Source of the DNA: an uncultured Gammaproteobacteria bacterium
GTDB lineage: Bacteria > Patescibacteriota > Patescibacteriia > Magasanikbacterales > GWA2-37-8
Direction of reading: 5' to 3'
Assembly: GCA_964496095.1 (NCBI GenBank)
Contig: CAZBWU010000001.1
Coordinates: 48,617-112,616 of the forward strand
DNA length: 64,000 bases
Position 1 is the first letter of the stretch. Each line of letters opens with the position of its first letter. The notes below the pieces were generated by a model, which worked only from the letters and a program-made list of their open reading frames with translations, made no database searches and had not been told where the DNA came from. A program made the position numbers and the translations under genes. Below are positions 1,504 through 64,000 of this stretch, one piece after another.

Positions 1504-2526
1504 TTATTTTTCCATCGCTTTCAAAACTTGCAAGTACATATCTTCCACAATCTTTTTTTGCGCCTCGCCAATTTTTAGATAATGGTCTAGGCCTGGCGCA
1601 GAATTGACTTCTAATACCCAATATTTTTTAGGTGGTTGGCTGATATCTCCGGCTATCATCAGATCAACCCCGCATAATCGCAGACCCATATATTTGGTAA
1701 TAACTACGGCCAGTTTTTTGAATTCAGGATGGATTGTATGAGTGACATCAATTCCGTCTCCGCCAGTGGAGAGATTGGCATTGTCTAATAGGTAAATTAT
1801 TTTGTTTTTTGGAGGGACAGATTTGAGGGTTAATTTTTGGTGTTTCAAATTTTGGACGATTCTAGTGTCGGTCATGGGTAAATGAGTGTCGCGTTTGTTG
1901 GTTATATATCCTTTGCCTTTGTTTTGTAGTAGCTGAAAGATAGAAGATTTGCCATCGCCGGTGACATTGAGGGGTATTCGTTGGTAGGCGGAGATAATCT
2001 TATTATCAAGCACAACAATGCGGTAATCTCTGCCTGTTAAAAGTTTTTGCACCAGGGCCACATCATCAAATTGGAAAATAAATTTCATGGCACGATAGAA
2101 TTCTGATTTGGTATAGACTTTGGCTACACCTCGGCCTTGGCTACTACTATTTGGTTTGACGATAACGGGCAGACCTAGTTGATTTGCGTATTTATACGCC
2201 ATTTTTATATTATCTTTTGAGTCTATAGCCTTGGCCCAAGAGTCTGAAAAAAAGGCCTTGCCTGGGACAGTGGGGAAGCCACCACGTGTGAGAAAAAAAT
2301 TGGCGTAGTCCTTGTCTTTGGCGATTTTGGATGCGCCCAAAGTATTAAGATCAAGACTGGTATGTCGCCAATAGCTGGTTTTGCCATTTTTAAAAATAAT
2401 TTGACCAACCTTATTCCATCTTGGCTCCATCACAATTTTTGCTCCGATTTGCGGGGCCACTTTTTGGAAAATTTGAGATAATAGAGTAGGTTTATGTTTG
2501 GGCATATTGCCAGCACACTCTATCAT
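1504..2526 (-). CDS. ATP-grasp family ligase (RimK/GshB-like)
   Basis: ATP-grasp signature segments are present (LPVIVKP...GRGV, YRIVVLDNKII, GGDGIDVT, WVLEVNSAPGLDHY). The substrate cannot be assigned from sequence. Confidence 0.7.
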   Translation of the reverse strand: MIECAGNMPKHKPTLLSQIFQKVAPQIGAKIVMEPRWNKVGQIIFKNGKTSYWRHTSLDLNTLGASKIAKDKDYANFFLTRGGFPTVPGKAFFSDSWAKAIDSKDNIKMAYKYANQLGLPVIVKPNSSSQGRGVAKVYTKSEFYRAMKFIFQFDDVALVQKLLTGRDYRIVVLDNKIISAYQRIPLNVTGDGKSSIFQLLQNKGKGYITNKRDTHLPMTDTRIVQNLKHQKLTLKSVPPKNKIIYLLDNANLSTGGDGIDVTHTIHPEFKKLAVVITKYMGLRLCGVDLMIAGDISQPPKKYWVLEVNSAPGLDHYLKIGEAQKKIVEDMYLQVLKAMEK

Positions 2527-2626
2527 AGATGGTTAAATTAGGCTAGATAGAGGGATAAATTGACTGGTTTGCTACTAGCGTAGTACAATGCCAAGTATAA
2601 ATTAAAGCTTATTTAACCTATAAAAT

Positions 2627-4417
2627 ATGGTCTTCCAAATCCCGGAAACAATAGAGAAAAAGCTATCTGTAAAGCTAAAAATAGCGATGGTAATAGGGTC
2701 GGTGGTTGTACTCGTAGGCGCGACTTTTGCCGGTTATTATTTTGGGCAAAAGAAAAATGCTGTACCGCCACAGGTAGTTCAAAATAATGATAATACTGTA
2801 CCGCCAACAGGTACGGTAGGTGAGATTGTTCCAGATCCTGTTACTGTGCCAGACACAGAAAATAGTACAGAACCTAAGAAGTACGTTTTTCCTACCACTT
2901 CTTTGCCACAGGAGATTGATAAGAAAATTGTCTGGCTTGCACAACCAAAACAGGTTGAGAATTTGAAGTGGTTTGAAGGAAGTGAATATGAGATAAATGC
3001 CTCATATTATGAGGTCGGTAATTTTGAGCACCAAGGAGAAAGCGGTAGAATCATTCTTGTGCAATGGGGTGTTGAAGGTATGGGCCCCCCGCCCTATTTT
3101 CATATATTAAACTTTAAAAAAGAAATAGTTATCTTGGTAAATTATTCTGATATATATCTCCCAAAAGACAGCTCTGATTATAGTGATCTAGGTTATATAG
3201 CACAATCTATAAGTCCAGATTTCAAACAGAAGATTAAATTAAATACGGATTTTCAGATGAGCTCATTAGATTTTCCGAAAGTGATTAAGGGTTCAAATGA
3301 TAGACAGGTTCTGCAGTCGTCAGATGTTTGGTATGGATTATCACAGGAATCTAGTAATTTTACTAGTGCTTCAGATAAAAAAATAACTATATTGTCTGAT
3401 TCAAAATTTGGACAGATTTACACTTCGGTAAATACAGGCGCATTTTATTTGTACGGGGCTCATGGAGTGGAGGTAACCTATGTTCTAGTGCCTGATTTTT
3501 TTAATAGGAGTAATCATTTGGCGCAAATTGTTTGGAATGATGGTTCTTGGAATGGGTATGAATATAGCTATACCGATCGGGGAGGATGTGGTGCAAAAAA
3601 TTATATTTCTGTAATGACTTCTTCCATAAATGTGGCTACAGATTTGGAAGCGGTGGGCAAGACAAGCAAAGGAGATAAAGTCTATGAATTAAAGGATAAA
3701 AACCATTTGTTGTTAGAGAATCTTTATACCGACGGATATTTCCCTAACCAAAATGGCAATAAAGTTTCTTACGAAGAATTTATTACTTTGCGGCCATTAA
3801 TATTTTGGGTAGATCCATTTGGCAGATTGATCAAGTTGCAGAACATGCGTTTTGTGCCACAAGCCGAATGTGGTAAGCCAGTCATTTATTTATACCCAGA
3901 AAAAACATCTATTGTAGATGTAAAAGTTGAGCCCCAAGGTGGAATGACTGTTTCTGATCCGTTTTATAATGGCGGTTGGCAGGTAAAGGCAGGGCCAAAT
4001 GGCCAATTAACAGAAACAAAATCAGGCAAGCAATACCCATATCTTTTCTGGGAAGGAAGGGGCGGATTGTACCAAACACCAGAAAAAGGTTTCTTAATTA
4101 AAAAAGAGAATATAGCCAAAGAGCTTCCAGAAAAACTGACTCAACTTGGATTAAACGCCAACGAAACCAAAGACTTTATGGAGTTTTGGTATCCACGCAT
4201 GCAGGTTAAACCGTATTATTTTGTGACTTTCCTTGGTACTCAACAGATGAACCAATTGGCGCCTCTCACTATCAATCCTCGACCAGACACAGTGGTGAGA
4301 ATCCTTATGGACTTTACTCCGCTTGATAAGCCAATTGATGTTTTGCCACTATCACTTGGTCGTACACCGGAAAGAAAAGGGTTTACAGTCATTGAGTGGG
4401 GCGGTGTGATTCGGTAA
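2627..4417 (+). CDS. Membrane-anchored exported protein, function unknown
   Basis: A long ORF with a single N-terminal TM helix (IAMVIGSVVVLVGATFAGYYF) followed by a large Pro/Thr-rich extracytoplasmic domain. No motif I recognise. The next gene starts 13 nt downstream. Confidence 0.6.
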   Translation: MVFQIPETIEKKLSVKLKIAMVIGSVVVLVGATFAGYYFGQKKNAVPPQVVQNNDNTVPPTGTVGEIVPDPVTVPDTENSTEPKKYVFPTTSLPQEIDKKIVWLAQPKQVENLKWFEGSEYEINASYYEVGNFEHQGESGRIILVQWGVEGMGPPPYFHILNFKKEIVILVNYSDIYLPKDSSDYSDLGYIAQSISPDFKQKIKLNTDFQMSSLDFPKVIKGSNDRQVLQSSDVWYGLSQESSNFTSASDKKITILSDSKFGQIYTSVNTGAFYLYGAHGVEVTYVLVPDFFNRSNHLAQIVWNDGSWNGYEYSYTDRGGCGAKNYISVMTSSINVATDLEAVGKTSKGDKVYELKDKNHLLLENLYTDGYFPNQNGNKVSYEEFITLRPLIFWVDPFGRLIKLQNMRFVPQAECGKPVIYLYPEKTSIVDVKVEPQGGMTVSDPFYNGGWQVKAGPNGQLTETKSGKQYPYLFWEGRGGLYQTPEKGFLIKKENIAKELPEKLTQLGLNANETKDFMEFWYPRMQVKPYYFVTFLGTQQMNQLAPLTINPRPDTVVRILMDFTPLDKPIDVLPLSLGRTPERKGFTVIEWGGVIR

Positions 4418-10486: not shown

Positions 10487-10648
10487 CTGTCATCCCGAGG
10501 GTTACGCCCGAGGGATCTCTGTCCCAACTGTCATTCCCGCCACAGCGGGAATCCAGACAATTTAATTGGACGCTGGATACCCGATCAGGTCGGGGATTAC
10601 AACGACGAACGAACTGGACAGAGATTCCTCCTTTGTCGTCGGAATGAC
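10487..10648. repeat. Cluster of short palindromic interspersed repeats (GTCATyC...GAATGAC family), at least 3 units in both orientations
   Basis: Units ctgtcatcccgagggttacgcccgagggatctctgtcc, ctgtcattcccgccacagcgggaatccagaca and an inverted unit ending ggaatgacaa. Related units recur at 33832, 37916, 59113 and 63484. Confidence 0.75.
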
Positions 10649-10659
10649 AATAAAAAATT

Positions 10660-11382
10660 ATGCAATCAACCATTCAATTATTTCATTACTTCTACAACAA
10701 TCTACCGCCACTTGTGCCGGAAGATGTGGTTTTGTCTATGAAAAAAGAATTGGATGATTTGGAAAAAGACCCAAATGTCACTTTGGCCGAAGTCGAAGAC
10801 AGGATGGTCAGATTTGGCTATGAAGTTTGGCCTTGGAATCAAGCCTTCAAATATTTTTTAAATAATGTTGAAGAAAAAATGGGTGACCATTTTTTGTTGC
10901 CTAGAATGAGTGAAGGATTGCGCGAAAAATACCTTAATTTCCAAGCATTAAATGGCACGCTCAAAGATCTGCAAACCGGCCGACCCGCTTCGTTTTTTAC
11001 TTCAGAAGAAAGGGCTGAATTGTGCGAAAAATTAGTAGATATGCGTTTGCACTTGAAAGAATATGTAAAGAGAGATCTGCTCGGAGTAAACCGAGAGGCC
11101 TATTTAGAAAAAGTAGATGAGTATAAAAACTTAGTAGAAAAAATAAAGTTTAATTTGGAATCTTTGCGTAATTTTGTAGAAAAGGAAGAAGACGGATCCG
11201 TTTTGATTGCGGAAATAAATACAAAGATTCGAGATTTTGAACATGGCCTGTGTCTACTTGGTACGGAGTTGGATTTTGAAGCAGTTTGCCAAGTGCATGA
11301 TTTTTTTGTAGGACGCAAAAAAGATTTGAATAGAATGAGAGGAATCAATACGCCAATAGAGGTTAATTTTTATAATGATTAA
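10660..11382 (+). CDS. Hypothetical protein
   Basis: A 240-aa ORF with a charged, helical composition. No recognisable motif. Confidence 0.45.
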   Translation: MQSTIQLFHYFYNNLPPLVPEDVVLSMKKELDDLEKDPNVTLAEVEDRMVRFGYEVWPWNQAFKYFLNNVEEKMGDHFLLPRMSEGLREKYLNFQALNGTLKDLQTGRPASFFTSEERAELCEKLVDMRLHLKEYVKRDLLGVNREAYLEKVDEYKNLVEKIKFNLESLRNFVEKEEDGSVLIAEINTKIRDFEHGLCLLGTELDFEAVCQVHDFFVGRKKDLNRMRGINTPIEVNFYND

Positions 11383-18547: not shown

Positions 18548-18666
18548 GCGCTGTTATAGCGCTTGAAATTCCGTCGCTCGCCCCAGATGAAAGCAAAATT
18601 TCGTCTGTGGCTCACTAGGAATTATAAATCATTTATTAATTTAAAAGATCCTGTAATAAATTCAGG

Positions 18667-19647
18667 ATGACAAATTATATGTTAACCTTCAAAGAAATGT
18701 ACGACCTGGGTGTGAAGCTCGGAGGGGCAGCTGATCCTCGTGGAGCAAAGGGAGTAAAAAAGTATTTAGAAAGAGTTGCAAAAGAGTTCGCAGGTTTGAA
18801 GCCTGAGGATAAAAAATATTTTGAAACAGATAGATTAGTAAACCCATATTTTTTTGATACTCGCATGCATGTTGGTAATCATAAAGATTCAGTAAAAAGA
18901 ATTTTGGCCGGTATTGATGTGGGAGCGGGTGAAATTTTGCTTGCTACTCAACTAAATGAACGTGGGCAAAAAATAGATGCCGTAGTCGCTCATCATCCAA
19001 TGGGAGGAAGTTTGGCCACTCTGCACGGTATTATGGATATGGTGGTAGAAGTTTATGAAGAGTTGGGTGTACCGGTGCATTTGGCAGAAAAATATATGGA
19101 AGAAAGAATTAACGAAGTGGGTCGCAGTGTCCATCCCATCAATCATTATCAAATCATAGATATGGCTAGATTGTTAGGAGTTAATTTTATGAACATGCAT
19201 ACTCCTACCGATAATTTGGTGCATGTATTTTTGGAAGAATTTTTAGCTAAAAAGAAACCGGAAACTGTGGGTGATGTTATGGATGCTTTAATGGAAATTC
19301 CTGAATATCAAGAAGCCAAGAGAAGAGGCAATGGCCCAGTTATTTTTAGCGGTAGCCCTAGAAATAAAGTTGGTAAATATATTTTAGAAATGACTGGCGG
19401 TACTGAACCCGCTAGTAAAATTTATACCGAACTTTCTCGTGTTGGTATAAGTACGGTGGTGGGGATGCATATGCAAAAAGATCAAAGAGATAAAGCTAGT
19501 GAATCCAGTATGAATGTCGTAGTGGCTGGTCATATGTCTTCTGACTCTTTGGGTATGAATTTGTATTTGGATGAGCTCGAGAAAAAAGGTGTGGAAGTTA
19601 TACCGTGTGGTGGATTAATTCGCGTGAGTAGAGTCAAGAAAAAATAA
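18667..19647 (+). CDS. Nif3-like dinuclear metal-centre protein (with an N-terminal extension)
   Basis: DAVVAHHP and NMHTPTDN segments resemble the conserved HHP and HTNLD motifs of the NIF3/YqfO family. The assignment is tentative. Confidence 0.45.
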   Translation: MTNYMLTFKEMYDLGVKLGGAADPRGAKGVKKYLERVAKEFAGLKPEDKKYFETDRLVNPYFFDTRMHVGNHKDSVKRILAGIDVGAGEILLATQLNERGQKIDAVVAHHPMGGSLATLHGIMDMVVEVYEELGVPVHLAEKYMEERINEVGRSVHPINHYQIIDMARLLGVNFMNMHTPTDNLVHVFLEEFLAKKKPETVGDVMDALMEIPEYQEAKRRGNGPVIFSGSPRNKVGKYILEMTGGTEPASKIYTELSRVGISTVVGMHMQKDQRDKASESSMNVVVAGHMSSDSLGMNLYLDELEKKGVEVIPCGGLIRVSRVKKK

Positions 19648-19777
19648 ATCAGGCAGTTCAATTATTGATATTTTTTTGTGGCAAGACGGCTCCCGCTGGG
19701 AGCTCGCCCGCTGTGGCGGGTTGGTGATTGCCACTTTAAAAATATAAATAATTTCTCGTTTCAATAATGTAGGGTCT

Positions 19778-28810: not shown

Positions 28811-30439
28811 TTAGGATTGTTTTGAATATTTTTCTTCGAGAAGTTTTTCTTTGACTCGTTGTCTGGCTTCACTATCACCACGAGCGCTATCGTAGGCATT
28901 ATGATCTACAAAATTCATTATCTCGGCGCGCCAAGGGTCGATTTTTTTGATTTCATTGTGGATTTGTTGGCACAACTTTCTATACTGAGGGTGTCCTTGT
29001 TTGGTCGTGCGTAGCTCAAGCATATGCATCGCTTCACGATCATTGAAGCCCATTACCCAGCGTACACGAGTGCCGTGTAGAGATACATAGGATGCTACCT
29101 CTCCCAAATCCTCATAAATTTCATTATACAATTCTAAAACTTTTTCATGGCATTGCATAATACGGTCGGCATGACCAGCGTCTTGTAGATCTTGAGGAAC
29201 CACCATACCCATGCGAGGACTAAAAGTTTGGCGCATTTGGGTATTCATCCGGTGGCGCATCAAATCTTTGTAAGTGCCAAAATCAGCACACAAGTCTACT
29301 GTATAAGCATAACCGCTTTCTAGAGCTCTGCCAGGACGATCGCGACGAGTCTGTCTGTCGCCAACGTACATTTTCTTGATGAGTTGTTGGGTATCTTTAT
29401 CCATTTCTTTTACAATTTCGTAAAGTTGCATTAGAGGTAAGTTGCTATAGGCATAAAGCATATTTGCAATCAGGTATTCTTCGGTATGGATTAATTCCCA
29501 AGGCACAATAGCGACGGATAAATTTTCTTTAGCAATAATACCTGATAATAATTTGTTGGCCAAATCCTTCATGCTTTTTTCAATTGCAATGTTGTAATCT
29601 TTTTTCTTTGCTCTATGTACGTACTCGGGCATTATTTTTGAAAGTTCAGTAAACAAATTTTTACCGATTTGTTCTACTTCAGGGTAAGGGGTGCTTAAGA
29701 GGTGAGAGATGAGCATTTGGAAATAACGGCCATTACCGAACATGCCCACATTTGTTTTTGTGCTTAAAGGTAGTAGGCACCGCAAAGTATCACAAGCCTT
29801 AGTTTTTTGATCAATTTTGTGGGTAGTCCTAAAAGCTTTTTGGTCTTTTTCTTCAGTTAAATCTGCAAGTTTTTGTTTATTGCCAGTGCCCAGAATGTCG
29901 TATTCGGCTTTTTCTAAAGGGAATAATTCTTGATAAAAATTTTGCATTGGTTCTATTAATTCTTTGTAGGTATCAAAAACATAATCCATAGTTTGGATAT
30001 ATTTCTCAGCGTGTTTGGAAGCCATTATTTTTGGTTCACGGACATATTTATATAGACCGTCTTGATCTTTTTCGTCAAAAAATACATAGCGAGTCGATTT
30101 TTCAATAGGGGAGCCGCCAATGCGTCTGTCTTCGATTTCTTTGGTAGATAGTACGGAGATGTTTTCAAAAGAAACGTGGGAACCTTCAAGTTCTCCAACA
30201 GAATCATCGCCATAAGCCACGAGCACGCGTTCGATAAGTTCGTGAACATGTTCTAAATCAACCACACCATCTTTAACAAATTCTTTTAGTAGTATTTCTT
30301 GAAAACCAGTTTTAATACGACTGTATCTGGCGTAAATAGCGCCAGCAATGCCGGTTAAGTTTTTAACGGCAAAAACATTGCCACCAACGTTGGTTACATA
30401 TGATTCTAAAATCTTTTTTTCTTCATCATTAAATGCCAT
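28811..30439 (-). CDS. thyX: Flavin-dependent thymidylate synthase ThyX-like (long form)
   Basis: RHR-type segment (LMRHRMNTQMRQTFSPR) and context between tmk and dut/dCMP deaminase. The 542-aa length is unusual and suggests a duplicated or extended ThyX fold. Confidence 0.5.
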   Translation of the reverse strand: MAFNDEEKKILESYVTNVGGNVFAVKNLTGIAGAIYARYSRIKTGFQEILLKEFVKDGVVDLEHVHELIERVLVAYGDDSVGELEGSHVSFENISVLSTKEIEDRRIGGSPIEKSTRYVFFDEKDQDGLYKYVREPKIMASKHAEKYIQTMDYVFDTYKELIEPMQNFYQELFPLEKAEYDILGTGNKQKLADLTEEKDQKAFRTTHKIDQKTKACDTLRCLLPLSTKTNVGMFGNGRYFQMLISHLLSTPYPEVEQIGKNLFTELSKIMPEYVHRAKKKDYNIAIEKSMKDLANKLLSGIIAKENLSVAIVPWELIHTEEYLIANMLYAYSNLPLMQLYEIVKEMDKDTQQLIKKMYVGDRQTRRDRPGRALESGYAYTVDLCADFGTYKDLMRHRMNTQMRQTFSPRMGMVVPQDLQDAGHADRIMQCHEKVLELYNEIYEDLGEVASYVSLHGTRVRWVMGFNDREAMHMLELRTTKQGHPQYRKLCQQIHNEIKKIDPWRAEIMNFVDHNAYDSARGDSEARQRVKEKLLEEKYSKQS

Positions 30440-33831: not shown

Positions 33832-33917
33832 TGCCATCCTGAAGGGTTAACACCCTGAAGGATCTCTGCCTTAATCACCGTCGGACAGAGATTCTTCGCT
33901 TTGCTCAGAATGACAGG
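33832..33917. repeat. Short palindromic interspersed repeat units (same family as 10487-10648)
   Basis: gccatcctgaagggttaacaccctgaaggatctctgcc followed by an inverted unit gacagagattcttcgctttgctcagaatgacagg. Confidence 0.7.
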
Positions 33918-33954
33918 TAGTAATAAGTGTAGTGTACCTATATTTACCTGAAAA

Positions 33955-33986
33955 GCAAATCCCCCCGCGATTGCGGGGGGATTTGA
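33955..33986 (-). terminator. Rho-independent terminator of rplA
   Basis: Hairpin ATCCCCCCGC-gatt-GCGGGGGGAT followed by a T-run on the minus strand. Confidence 0.75.
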
Positions 33987-33999
33987 GAGTGAAGTTTGA

Positions 34000-34674
34000 T
34001 TAGGCTGAGATTTTGATAGATGGACTCATGGTAGAGCAGAGAACCACGTTTTTGAGGAAGGTACCTTTAGCTGTGGCAGGCTTGGCTTTGCGCAAGACTT
34101 CCAAGAAGGCATTGATATTTTCTTTTAGTTTCTCTTCGCCGAAGCTGATTTTGCCTACAGCTTGGTGAACATTTCCATTATCATCATTTTTGAAAGTCAC
34201 TTTACCAGTTTTGAGATCTTCAATCATCTTTTTTAGGTTGGTGCCTACAGTATCAGATTTTGGGTTAGGCATTAAACCTTTTGGACCCAAGACTCTCGCG
34301 ACAGAAGCCATTTTAGGCATCATATCTGGAGTGGTGATAGCGATCTCGAAGGCAATCTTACCTGTGTCTTTAATTTTTTTAATATCTTCTTCACCGTAAA
34401 CAAAGTCTGCGCCGGCATCCTTGGCTTCTTTTTCTCTTTCCGGAGCGACGAAAGCGGCAACAGTTTTGGTTTTACCGGTTCCGTGTGGCAAAACTACGGT
34501 CGCGCGAACTTGTTGTTCGGTTTTTTTGGTGTTAATACCCAAGTTGGCATGCACCTCTACGGTGGCGTCAAATTTAACACTAGAAACTTCTTTGAGAAGT
34601 TTTAAGGCTTCGTCCAAAGAGTATGATTTGTTTTTCTCCACCTTGGCCATGTTGGCCTTCATTTTTTTTGACAT
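34000..34674 (-). CDS. rplA: 50S ribosomal protein L1
   Basis: Typical bL1 sequence (VVLPHGTGKTKTVAAF, GPKGLMPNPK) and a 224-aa length. rplK is not adjacent. Confidence 0.9.
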   Translation of the reverse strand: MSKKMKANMAKVEKNKSYSLDEALKLLKEVSSVKFDATVEVHANLGINTKKTEQQVRATVVLPHGTGKTKTVAAFVAPEREKEAKDAGADFVYGEEDIKKIKDTGKIAFEIAITTPDMMPKMASVARVLGPKGLMPNPKSDTVGTNLKKMIEDLKTGKVTFKNDDNGNVHQAVGKISFGEEKLKENINAFLEVLRKAKPATAKGTFLKNVVLCSTMSPSIKISA

Positions 34675-37915: not shown

Positions 37916-38016
37916 TTGTCATTCTGAGTGAAACGAGGAATCTCTGTCGGGATAATTTAAAATTGACAGGGATCCTTAACGGAGTTTATCCCCTTTAGGG
38001 GGTTCAGGATGACAGT
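37916..38016. repeat. Short palindromic interspersed repeat units (GTCATTC family)
   Basis: ttgtcattctgagtgaaacgaggaatctctgtc followed by an inverted unit ending caggatgacag. Confidence 0.7.
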
Positions 38017-48066: not shown

Positions 48067-48232
48067 AAGTATTTAAAAAGCCCGCTTGTGGCGGGCATAG
48101 TTTGTTATACAAAACTACACCTGCCTCAGGAATTATTATTATTCAAATTGTTGTTTAGATTTTTCATAAGAGTTATCATAAATCTTTTACAAACTCCTGT
48201 CAATGAGATTGGAGATTTTTTGCAATTATATT

Positions 48233-55564: not shown

Positions 55565-55927
55565 ATGACGGAAAAATCACGAGGAAACGAGCGTAATAGG
55601 GAAAGGTGGAGATTGTACGATCAAGGCTATGCAAATGCTTATGCTGATCCCGAATGTCGTGCAACTTTAGGTTATCTTAAAAGGTTAGCTCCTGACTACA
55701 GCAGTAAAGGTGACAGATTTAGAGTAAAAGGAGCAGAGGGTGATTTGAAGGGAGTATACGTGCAAATTTTATCTATTAATGAGGCTGATAATACTGTAAC
55801 TATTGATGTTGGAAAGTTAGGAGTTGAACGTACGGTGCCGATTTCATATTTACTTGATGATGAAAAGGCTGAGGTGTATATAGAAAAATCTGGCGCATTG
55901 GATGTTCCGTTCGGTGATGAAAAGTAA
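55565..55927 (+). CDS. Hypothetical protein
   Basis: 120-aa ORF, no motif. Confidence 0.35.
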   Translation: MTEKSRGNERNRERWRLYDQGYANAYADPECRATLGYLKRLAPDYSSKGDRFRVKGAEGDLKGVYVQILSINEADNTVTIDVGKLGVERTVPISYLLDDEKAEVYIEKSGALDVPFGDEK

Positions 55928-59112: not shown

Positions 59113-59298
59113 CTGTCATTCTGAGTAAAGCGAAGAATCCCTGTCTGTACAATTGTCATTCCGACCGAAGTGGAGGAATCCCTTAAACAAGGTATTTGCA
59201 TGTACATAGTATAAGGGATCCCTCGACGGAGTTTATACCCTTTAGGGTGCTCGGGATGACAAACGGACAGAGATCCTTCATTTCATTCAGGATGACAA
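59113..59298. repeat. Cluster of short palindromic interspersed repeats filling the carA-carB spacer
   Basis: ctgtcattctgagtaaagcgaagaatccctgtctg, ttgtcattccgaccgaagtggaggaatccc, and inverted units (ggtgctcgggatgacaaacggacagagatcc, cattcaggatgacaac). Confidence 0.75.
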
Positions 59299-63254: not shown

Positions 63255-64000
63255 ATGATTAATTTTCAATCAGAATTAAACCAAGAACAATTAGAACCAG
63301 TTTTGCACGGCGACGGGCCGTGTTTAGTTTTGGCTGGAGCTGGAAGCGGTAAGACAAGAGTTATTACCTATCGGGTGGCTTATTTGTTAGAGCAGGGAAT
63401 TAATCCGGAAAATATATTGTTAGTCACTTTTACCAACAAAGCTGCGGATGAAATGAAACGCAGAGTTGAGAAGTTGACGACACTGTCTGTCATTCCCGCT
63501 ACAGCGGGAATCCAGACAACCGTACACTGGATTCCCAATCAAGTTGGGAATGACAAAAGTGTAAAACTGCCTTGGGCAGGCACTTTTCATCATATCGCTT
63601 ATCGTATTTTACGAATTTATGCGCCGATTTTGGGCTACAAAAATAACTTTTCAGTACTAGATAGCGATGATAGTGAGACTATTTTGAAACTCTGTGCCAA
63701 GCCATTCAAATCAGATACTGGTCGGGTCAAGTTTCCTTCGGCGCGGGTTTTACAATCAATTATTAGTTTTGCGCGTAATTCAGAAACCACAATTGATAGC
63801 GTACTAGATCTCAAACATCCGCAATGGCAAATTTTTAGCGACAATATAAAAACGATTGCTCGTGAGTATGAACAAAAAAAGAAGGAAGCCAATGTGATGG
63901 ATTTTGATGATTTGTTGGTAAATTTTTTGTTGCTACTTAATCATGAACCAGCATTAAAAAAATATGCCGAGCAGTTCAAATATATTTTGGTAGACGAGTA
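63255..64000 (+). CDS. ATP-dependent DNA helicase, UvrD/PcrA/Rep family (N-terminal part; continues beyond the window)
   Basis: Helicase motifs: Walker A LVLAGAGSGKTRVITYRVAYL, Ia LLVTFTNKAADEM, then GTFH, and motif II ILVDEYQ at the window edge. The frame is open to position 64000. Confidence 0.9.
   Translation, partial: MINFQSELNQEQLEPVLHGDGPCLVLAGAGSGKTRVITYRVAYLLEQGINPENILLVTFTNKAADEMKRRVEKLTTLSVIPATAGIQTTVHWIPNQVGNDKSVKLPWAGTFHHIAYRILRIYAPILGYKNNFSVLDSDDSETILKLCAKPFKSDTGRVKFPSARVLQSIISFARNSETTIDSVLDLKHPQWQIFSDNIKTIAREYEQKKKEANVMDFDDLLVNFLLLLNHEPALKKYAEQFKYILVDE
63484..63556. repeat. Palindromic interspersed repeat unit inserted in-frame within the helicase CDS
   Basis: tgtctgtcattcccgctacagcgggaatccagacaa...gggaatgacaaa lies inside the open reading frame. 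It adds about 25 aa (SVIPATAGIQTTVHWIPNQVGNDKS) between helicase motif Ia and the GTFH motif without a stop or frameshift. Confidence 0.7.

Follow-up and report, generated by a model that had tools for sequence, protein, structure and literature searches.

The short palindromic repeats scattered through the 64-kb stretch of DNA analysed here (hereafter, the window) are very probably CGTC/TGTC-tagged REP or SRM-type repeats, a class already described, and not a new kind of element. In the whole window we identified 15 TGTC-tagged hairpin units, of 26-50 nt each, at six loci. The best explanation of the data as a whole, which we favour with some confidence, is that they are TGTC-tagged REP/SRM repeats of Candidatus Magasanikbacteria mobilised via an Ssn-type GIY-YIG nuclease.

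Ribosomal protein L1 encoded in the window is 92% identical to proteins named Candidatus Magasanikbacteria, and the nearest named homologues of a helicase fragment come from Magasanikbacteria, Parcubacteria and Uhrbacteria. Based on these protein similarities, the window is assigned to a Patescibacteria/CPR genome (Candidatus Magasanikbacteria), that of an ultra-small groundwater-type bacterium. The titles "uncultured Gammaproteobacteria" on the closest MAG contigs (L001-L003) look wrong.

Identification of the repeat units

The initial annotation had described units of the form TGTCATYC-(hairpin)-GGAATC-YCTGTC. Employing dinucleotide-preserving shuffles of the window as a control, we found the strict pattern TGTCATYC-N(8-30)-GRATYC five times against 0.05 expected, and the 8-mer TGTCATYC 13 times against 3.3 expected, a count attained in 0 of 100 shuffles. 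Cataloguing every sequence that has the tag, at least 5 bp of basal stem and a 3' C gave 13 units; two degenerate ones, 10574-10602(-) and 37917-37948(+), raise the count to 15. Under a filter that demanded 7 or more perfect pairs, most units were lost owing to the G.A step in their stems (see below). The five clusters reported at the outset proved to be real, with coordinates right to within 1-2 nt; together with a singleton added here, 18647-18672(-), they confirm six loci with units in both orientations, where six or more had been claimed.

All five clusters are convergent pairs with the TGTC tags outside (head-to-head, HH), and two of them, 10488-10649 and 59114-59297, are nested, with a pair inside a pair. 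Two types of unit, A and B, are distinguished in the next section. In the first nested cluster, the outer left unit is of type B (10488-10523, +; TGTCATCCCGAGGGTTACGCCCGAGGGATCTCTGTC), in which a tandem G.A/A.G step separates the 5-bp basal stem from a GGG/CCC top. It is followed by an inner left unit of type A (10529-10559, +; TGTCATTCCCGCCACAGCGGGAATCCAGACA) that is NTS/dRS3-like, with an 8-bp stem, a 4-nt loop, a CCA tail and a fold z of -6.9. The inner right partner is a degenerate type A' unit (10574-10602, -; TGTAATCCCCGACCTGATCGGGTATCCAG), the intact form of which is present in L193, and the outer right unit, again of type B (10616-10649, -; TGTCATTCCGACGACAAAGGAGGAATCTCTGTCC), ends 10 nt upstream of the ATG of the next gene. 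The singleton at 18647-18672(-) (TGTCATCCTGAATTTATTACAGGATC) lies in the IleRS-NIF3 spacer, where its GGATGACA end gives the downstream ORF a spurious ATG.

The rplA-pyk spacer carries a type B unit with the variant tag TGCC (33832-33870, +; fold z -2.3) head-to-head with a second type B unit (33884-33915, -; TGTCATTCTGAGCAAAGCGAAGAATCTCTGTC). A further type B unit, with one T.G pair in its basal stem (37917-37948, +; TGTCATTCTGAGTGAAACGAGGAATCTCTGTC), is paired with a long type B variant that has an extra internal CCCCTAAAGGGG hairpin and ends 6 nt past the stop codon of the NUDIX gene (37965-38014, -). The second nested cluster begins 12 nt past the carA stop codon. It consists of type B units on the outer left (59114-59145, +) and inner left (59154-59185, +; TGTCATTCCGACCGAAGTGGAGGAATCCC), a long type B variant on the inner right (59214-59261, -), with an extra internal hairpin and of a subfamily common to 37965-38014, and a type B unit on the outer right (59266-59297, -) that ends 14 nt before the carB ATG. 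The last pair lies within a UvrD/PcrA-type helicase gene, the 5' part of which occupies 63255-63998(+) and which continues past the window end; it is formed by a type A unit (63488-63518, +; in-frame product ..SVIPATAGIQT...) and a type A' unit (63525-63555, -; product ..HWIPNQVGND).

The neighbours of the units are housekeeping genes (SpoU methylase, IleRS, pyruvate kinase, ribosomal protein L1, FMN reductase, NUDIX, carA/carB), and pairs occupy whole spacers between co-directional genes. Spread across 53 kb, the units are inverted, irregularly spaced and variable in sequence, with no constant repeat; a CRISPR array was therefore rejected, as it had been initially.

Two hairpins listed as related in the initial annotation, at 19690-19735 and 48085-48105, are not members of the family. 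Both are without the TGTCAT tag and the GRATC end, and they have in common with type A just a CCCGC-NNNN-GCGGG core. The former did not recur in any fetched sequence, and the latter adjoins tRNA-Asn. In a scan of the window at Rfam gathering thresholds, this tRNA was the single match and no unit was matched, so the units are not a curated RNA family. A literature search with the unit sequences returned chance primer matches only.

Hairpin design and covariation

In its own orientation, each unit reads TGTC, a stem opening with A-T then T-A, a variable top, the closing stem, an invariant C and a tail. The tag is TGTC in 13 of the 15 window units, TGCC in one and TGTA in one degenerate unit, and the AT...AT stem start is present in all. 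Type A units (10529, 63488, 63525-63555 and the decayed 10574) have a perfect 8-bp stem, a 4-5 nt loop and the tail CCAG(ACA); folded as single-stranded DNA, the two forward units gave z of -5.8 to -6.9 and 63525-63555 gave -2.5. The remaining units, type B, are built on a basal stem of 5 bp, ATYCY/RGRAT; above it come the G.A and A.G mismatches and a short top stem-loop, and the tail YCTGTC follows the 3' C. These eleven mostly combine the 5-bp stem and the G.A/A.G step (found in 9 of the 11) with a top of 2-5 bp, and their loops range from 3 to more than 20 nt. The most frequent type B top is GCGNAGC, often a mini-hairpin; d(GCGAAGC) is a very stable DNA mini-hairpin.

To the initial observation of compensatory variation in the hairpins we can add a statistical basis. 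A set of 162 units from the window and metagenome loci was chosen by unpaired anchors alone (TGTCA ... TCYCTGTC) and set against 300 shuffles that exchanged stem partners between units. Watson-Crick pairing was found in 93% of the units at stem pair 3 (57% in the best shuffle), 88% at pair 5 (67%), 86% at pair 8 (54%) and 68% at pair 9 (55%); pair 2 was T-A in 96% of these anchor-selected units. Pair 6 was G.A in 95% and pair 7 A.G in 91% of the set, a step partly imposed by the metagenome search pattern; support for it independent of that pattern comes from the window's own units and co-occurring units only. Both the window units and the 162-unit set have invariant positions on either side of the stem, GTC preceding it and C following. 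Folded whole and compared with shuffles, the pairs gave z of -3.2 to -5.0 in the window and -9.5 for a homodimer in the relative L214. From the covariation of the pairs and these fold values (-3.2 to -9.5), the hairpin structure is under selection and not the sequence alone.

Comparison with known repeat classes

CGTC-tagged REPs were defined by Di Nocera, De Gregorio & Rocco in 2013 (PMC3733652). Their tag is often TGTC (the variant CCTC is also accepted), and the stem, which starts with A-T pairs, is 8-9 bp long with a loop of 4-5 nt and an unpaired CCA tail (PMC3733652). They form mainly HH dimers with the tags outside, frequently heterodimers, sited between co-directional or convergent genes, and intragenic copies occur notably in UvrABCD, RecBCD and polymerases (PMC3733652). 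The superfamily takes in dRS3 of Neisseria and RPE-4 and RPE-6 of Rickettsia (PMC3733652).

The REP-like character suggested initially is borne out by comparison with these defining features. The window units have the unpaired (C/T)GTC tag, the A-T/T-A stem start and, in type A, the CCA tail; they form mostly HH pairs, often heterodimers, the two members of a pair often differing in unit type; they lie in co-directional spacers with no linked transposase; and they include in-frame copies in replication/repair genes such as UvrD/Rep. They depart from the published class in type B: where that class has an 8-9 bp stem, a 4-5 nt loop and a CCA tail, type B has a 5-bp stem followed by the G.A/A.G step and a variable top, and its tail is YCTGTC; the four type A units fit the published stem and loop ranges, whereas the eleven others do not. 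Nested pairs are also frequent in the window, and the CPR host is absent from the phyla given in PMC3733652. In the literature searched, we found no report of the CGTC/TGTC REP/SRM class in Patescibacteria.

The second point of comparison is NTS, the oriented dRS3 with the consensus CGTCATTCCCGCGMAVGCGGGAATCYRG (Chenal et al. 2025, PMC11893778). Type A is identical to this consensus at 25 of 28 positions, the differences being T for C in the first base of the tag and two loop bases; in sequence, type A is essentially the Neisseria NTS/dRS3 design. NTS is bound by SsnA, a 94-aa GIY-YIG protein that cuts a few nt upstream and acts on single-stranded DNA only; the C after the palindrome is the most critical for binding, and the three bases before the palindrome for cutting (PMC11893778). 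Our units conserve the positions reported to matter for SsnA, GTC just ahead of the hairpin and C just behind it. Genes for ssnA are usually flanked by Ssn-related motifs (SRM), across phyla, and the NTS-ssnA-NTS layout has been likened to an insertion sequence (PMC11893778).

The published SRM pattern, HGTCWYN(0-2)YYVSBRHN(0-5)WNVSBRGN(0-2)RNCYNB, matched none of the 15 units exactly; its one match in the window, at 55681 (0.11 expected), was unrelated. Type A is one substitution, in the loop, from the pattern, and type B two. At two substitutions about 41 chance matches are expected per window, so the pattern is no longer specific for type B.

The likeness to RPEs proposed in the initial annotation holds in that an in-frame pair lies in the window UvrD gene and the superfamily includes RPE-4/RPE-6. 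With the RPE-1 type the window repeats have in common a palindrome placed in frame in housekeeping proteins with the reading frame kept; they differ from it in that RPE-1 measures about 100-150 bp and is unrelated in sequence, whereas the insert here is a pair of units of 26-32 nt.

In-frame copies in UvrD and IleRS

The A/A' pair at 63488-63555 lies in frame in the UvrD/PcrA-type helicase and adds 24 codons, which fall in the loop between helicase motifs Ia and Ib; across the insert the protein reads ...RRVEKLTT[LSVIPATAGIQTTVHWIPNQVGND]KSVKLPWAGTFHH. Motifs Ia and Ib could be placed in 97 helicase homologues; in 73 of these the loop is 17 aa long, compared with 41 aa in the window protein. 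Other repeat-type peptides occur in the same loop in several lineages (P0126, LDSRFRGNES; P0132, PCPSPCKGEG; P0168). The Ia-Ib loop is therefore a recurrent landing site or a site where insertions are tolerated. In-frame pairs were found in UvrD in the window and in the relative L002, and in IleRS in the relative L149, where a B/B pair in a loop encodes TVIPTPKEESLSVHGKIPRRFGSLGMT.

Gain and loss of units among relatives

Outside the window, units were found in L002, L149, L193, L132 and L214/L215, the L214 contig belonging to the unit-rich relative GCA_016182085.1. Five orthologous sites, at protein identities of 76-94%, were filled in one relative and empty in another, which indicates turnover of units. 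In the UvrD loop, the window carries the A/A' pair, L001 carries none while being 94% identical outside the insert, and in L002 a type B pair and a partial unit occupy the position of the window insert. The rplA-pyk spacer holds a B/B' pair in the window, only a terminator-like hairpin in the 27-nt spacer of L212, and one B-like unit plus an A/A homodimer in L214/L215. The L212 contig, which belongs to GCA_017991415.1, carries no units over 20 kb. Between SpoU and ORF240 the window has the four-unit composite, and in L149 the two genes abut; at the ORF240/pfkB junction the reverse is seen, the window genes overlapping by 4 nt and L149 carrying an A/A' pair. The A' unit of this L149 pair is identical to the window A' unit 63525-63555, at a different locus. 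The IleRS loop is empty in the window and filled in L149. Decayed copies, such as 10574-10602, are present as well. The initial annotation spoke of recent proliferation; ongoing turnover is supported by the five filled/empty sites, and nothing beyond turnover is.

The nested composite of 10488-10649, B[A-spacer-A']B', is found again beside unrelated genes in L193 and L132, with an inner pair and spacer near-identical to those of the window. Its presence at non-orthologous loci suggests either movement of the whole composite or preferential landing of A pairs in the centres of B pairs.

Such observations could also be read as MITEs, also suggested initially, moved in trans by a DDE transposase, with the pair as the element and its units as the terminal inverted repeats. 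The inverted arrangement of units around a variable centre, the presence or absence of pairs at orthologous sites and the recurrence of the same composite at non-orthologous loci are all as this explanation would have it. However, we looked for target-site duplications and found none, either at the six cluster borders or in three orthologous empty-site comparisons, and no DDE transposase was found in the window. Singletons and mixed-type pairs are common, and the arms, frequently of two different unit types, do not qualify as true terminal inverted repeats. Taken together, we regard a MITE origin as very improbable. A 9-nt direct repeat, ATAAAAAAT, occurs on either side of 10488-10649; it was not counted as a target-site duplication because its left copy does not abut the element and the DNA around it is A-rich.

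Association with small GIY-YIG nucleases

The type B pattern was found in at least 116 stretches of environmental metagenomes, many from the 0.1-0.2 um fractions of Hainich groundwater. Among 2.9 million viral contigs there was a single match, which argues that the element is not phage-borne. The matches listed in the type B pattern retrieval comprised 585 kb of metagenome DNA with 259 units, in which 59 of 99 close neighbour pairs were in the tag-outward (+/-) arrangement.

Three small GIY-YIG ORFs were present in the 585 kb of matches listed, each with type B units within 75 nt. Those of L136 and L191 have type B units on both sides, L136 with a complete pair-gene-pair arrangement; that of L155 is preceded by a full unit and followed at its 3' end by no more than a fragment of one. 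All three encode single-domain proteins of Pfam PF01541 (E about 1e-13), and an NCBIfam search returned no name for the repeat-linked proteins. Among 29 ORFs bracketed by units on both sides in the same 585 kb (matches listed), GIY-YIG was the only recurrent family. The repeat-linked family is very large, with at least 7,998 members of a typical length of 97 aa, many of them on contigs under 2 kb.

In the opposite direction, starting from the protein, four independent GIY-YIG homologues were picked solely on the length of their contigs. Unit pairs lay directly upstream and downstream in all four, one of which is within an array of about 19 units. In total, type-B-like units flank 7 of 7 GIY-YIG genes; six have them on either side, and the L155 gene has a full unit upstream and a fragment downstream. 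The repeat-gene-repeat layout around a small single-domain GIY-YIG gene is that of ssnA and its SRMs, here with units of type B design and in other lineages; Ssn itself is defined by CDD family cd10448, and the associated proteins are placed at the Pfam level. All seven cases come from lineages other than that of the window. The only source names among the homologues were Anaerolineae/Anaerolineales, and of the seven genes P0022 alone is so named.

Neither the 64-kb window nor about 95 kb of related Magasanikbacteria DNA contains a GIY-YIG gene, and a profile built from 120 repeat-linked GIY-YIG proteins had no match in the window. About 1 Mb of helicase-anchored loci yielded two weak GIY-YIG ORFs only, of another subfamily and both in L060 (Bacteroidota); they are without flanking TGTC units and were dropped as a lead.

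The initial annotation had pointed to a REP-associated tyrosine transposase as the partner, and classical GTAG REPs and BIMEs, mobilised by the IS200/IS605-like RAYT (REPtrons), do resemble the window repeats: both are short tagged hairpins, spread through intergenic DNA in tag-outward pairs, with no target-site duplication and a putative recognition as single strands. The tag here is TGTC, however, and not GTAG, and CGTC-type repeats are not associated with RAYT genes in the literature. No transposase, Y1/HUH, IS110 or GIY-YIG domain came up when about 70 window ORFs were scanned with Pfam, and the unit-bracketed ORFs in the 585 kb (matches listed) included no recurring transposase family and no Y1/HUH transposase. 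Mobilisation by a RAYT is thus hardly to be expected.

Proposed mechanism

Most plausibly, the unit is an oriented hairpin read as single-stranded DNA. We propose that the units may be recognised by an Ssn-type enzyme, a small single-domain GIY-YIG endonuclease of single-stranded DNA whose gene would lie elsewhere in the genome. The enzyme would bind the hairpin together with the 3' C and cut a few nt upstream of the tag. A nuclease gene flanked by unit pairs would be an autonomous element, and gene-less pairs its non-autonomous derivatives. Spread would proceed via single-stranded DNA, so that no target-site duplication would be left.

For the window genome we give this mechanism, with single-stranded hairpins recognised by an Ssn-type nuclease encoded elsewhere and a gene-bearing copy acting as the autonomous form, about an even chance. 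The uncertainty is due to three circumstances: no nuclease gene was found in the window or in the roughly 95 kb of related CPR sequence; the seven cases of linkage belong to other lineages, with the nuclease family known at the PF01541 level; and movement of the repeats by Ssn is a hypothesis only in the literature as well (PMC11893778).

The window repeats may alternatively be orphans or relics with no resident nuclease, which recombination, gene conversion between copies and the uptake of foreign DNA would keep in turnover; their hairpins would now act mainly at the RNA level, to stabilise or punctuate mRNA. In favour of this, no GIY-YIG gene was found in the window or related loci; units lie inside operons, as in the carA-carB spacer, and must therefore be transcribed; and the mixed-type heterodimers suggest recombination. 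Di Nocera et al. likewise found no transposase associated with CGTC REPs and favoured RNA-level roles for many REPs (PMC3733652). The absence of a nuclease, however, rests on the equivalent of about 6% of a roughly 1-Mb genome, and in other lineages 7 of 7 nuclease genes have flanking units of the same design. Moreover, whichever way a unit points relative to transcription, its unpaired tag and 3' C are conserved, and a reader acting on DNA fits this better than a role in RNA. We therefore think it unlikely that the window repeats are orphans, and retain the Ssn-type mechanism as the preferred reading. RNA-level effects on the operons that carry repeats are likely to be side effects compatible with a DNA-level mechanism.

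A more speculative extension, which we put forward tentatively, is that type B is a separate recognition class for a very large Ssn-like GIY-YIG branch, and that in Patescibacteria it expands, nests in the centres of pairs and colonises the UvrD and IleRS loops, possibly with no resident nuclease. In that case type B repeats might, for instance, be served by an enzyme acting in trans, or arrive with the DNA that these reduced cells depend on taking up.

Significance of the repeats

The main value of these results is that the repeats can be filed correctly, under CGTC/TGTC REPs and SRM, and neither as a new mobile element nor as CRISPR. In CPR metagenomics, peptides derived from them in UvrD and IleRS, and repeats common to unrelated contigs, are a potential source of error in annotation, assembly, binning and the calling of horizontal transfer. 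As type B lies outside the published search pattern, genome surveys based on that pattern under-count such repeats. The link between type-B-like units and a GIY-YIG family of thousands suggests further pairs of nuclease and hairpin specificity, which may be of use as single-strand DNA tools. The family is an added member of a described class, with a variant hairpin design, and it is found in a small, tightly packed CPR genome, yet its repeats fill intergenic spacers and sit in essential genes.

The helicase motif Ia-Ib loop and palindromic repeats

The UvrD/PcrA-type helicase gene of the window (63255..63998, +) carries an in-frame repeat pair between motifs Ia and Ib and runs off the window end. 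Close homologues of its product (P0121-P0240) were nearly all just 200-430 aa in length, and many, also on contigs of 0.2-1.3 Mb, were named 'partial'. In the lineages of these homologues, the helicase could be encoded by a broken or divided gene; the window ends within the 5' part. In other lineages, the motif Ia-Ib loop contained other repeat-type peptides: LDSRFRGNES in P0126, PCPSPCKGEG in P0132, and PPNLPLERGGGQPFPLSKGERKG among P0168 and P0181. The Ia-Ib loop of the helicase appears to be a place where palindromic repeats generally land or are tolerated.

Hairpins in the rplA and NIF3-ruvA spacers

Immediately 3' of rplA, there is a terminator-like G+C hairpin (33940-33975 in the window; 10680-10700 and 10690-10712 in the relatives L212 and L214, respectively). 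Its position is kept in three relatives, its sequence is different in each, and in every case the repeat pairs are located on its downstream side. The NIF3-ruvA spacer of the window (19648-19777, ~130 nt) contains a double hairpin at 19678-19734 with the closing arms GTGGCAA/TTGCCAC. Because the same spacer in L212 is 9 nt long, the double hairpin is an insertion of a different palindromic structure, which is apparently unique.

Coexisting unit types and GIY-YIG genes

A third unit type, TGTCATTGCGAGG...CGACGAAGCAATC, was found alongside type B units in the closely related contig L002 (847-1199) and in the Anaerolineae-like contig L136 (1845-3109), and these co-occurrences indicate that one genome hosts several unit types together. 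In L206, another contig bearing a GIY-YIG nuclease gene, an array of ~19 units (1640-3187) encloses the gene, with four alternating unit types that recur about every 120 nt. Nothing in the window comes near the density of this array. Separately, a Bacteroidota MAG (L060, 4280-4800) encodes a GIY-YIG protein of a different subfamily, with copies of gtgccgaaggccggactcggaacgt.aaacgttccgagaaccgg on the flanks of the gene, adjoining what looks like a tRNA gene. The gene and its flanking copies may be another nuclease-repeat pairing.

Gene replacement, host labels and predicted horizontal transfer

The window encodes a ThyX-type thymidylate synthase of 542 aa with two Thy1 stretches (28811-30439), whereas ThyA and DHFR are encoded at the syntenic position in L212 (13578-14928) and L214 (14330-15734). 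Close relatives differ at this position by a non-orthologous replacement.

The closest MAG contigs (L001, L002 and L003) carry the record title 'uncultured Gammaproteobacteria bacterium'. These labels look wrong, because ribosomal protein L1 of the window (34000-34674) shows 92% identity to Candidatus Magasanikbacteria proteins and the closest named relatives of the helicase are all Patescibacteria.

In one study of Patescibacteria (PMC12455944), the genes predicted to have been horizontally transferred from this group include those for a 'GIY-YIG catalytic domain protein' and a 'UvrD subfamily helicase'. Speculatively, shared repeat insertions like those described above might contribute to such predictions.
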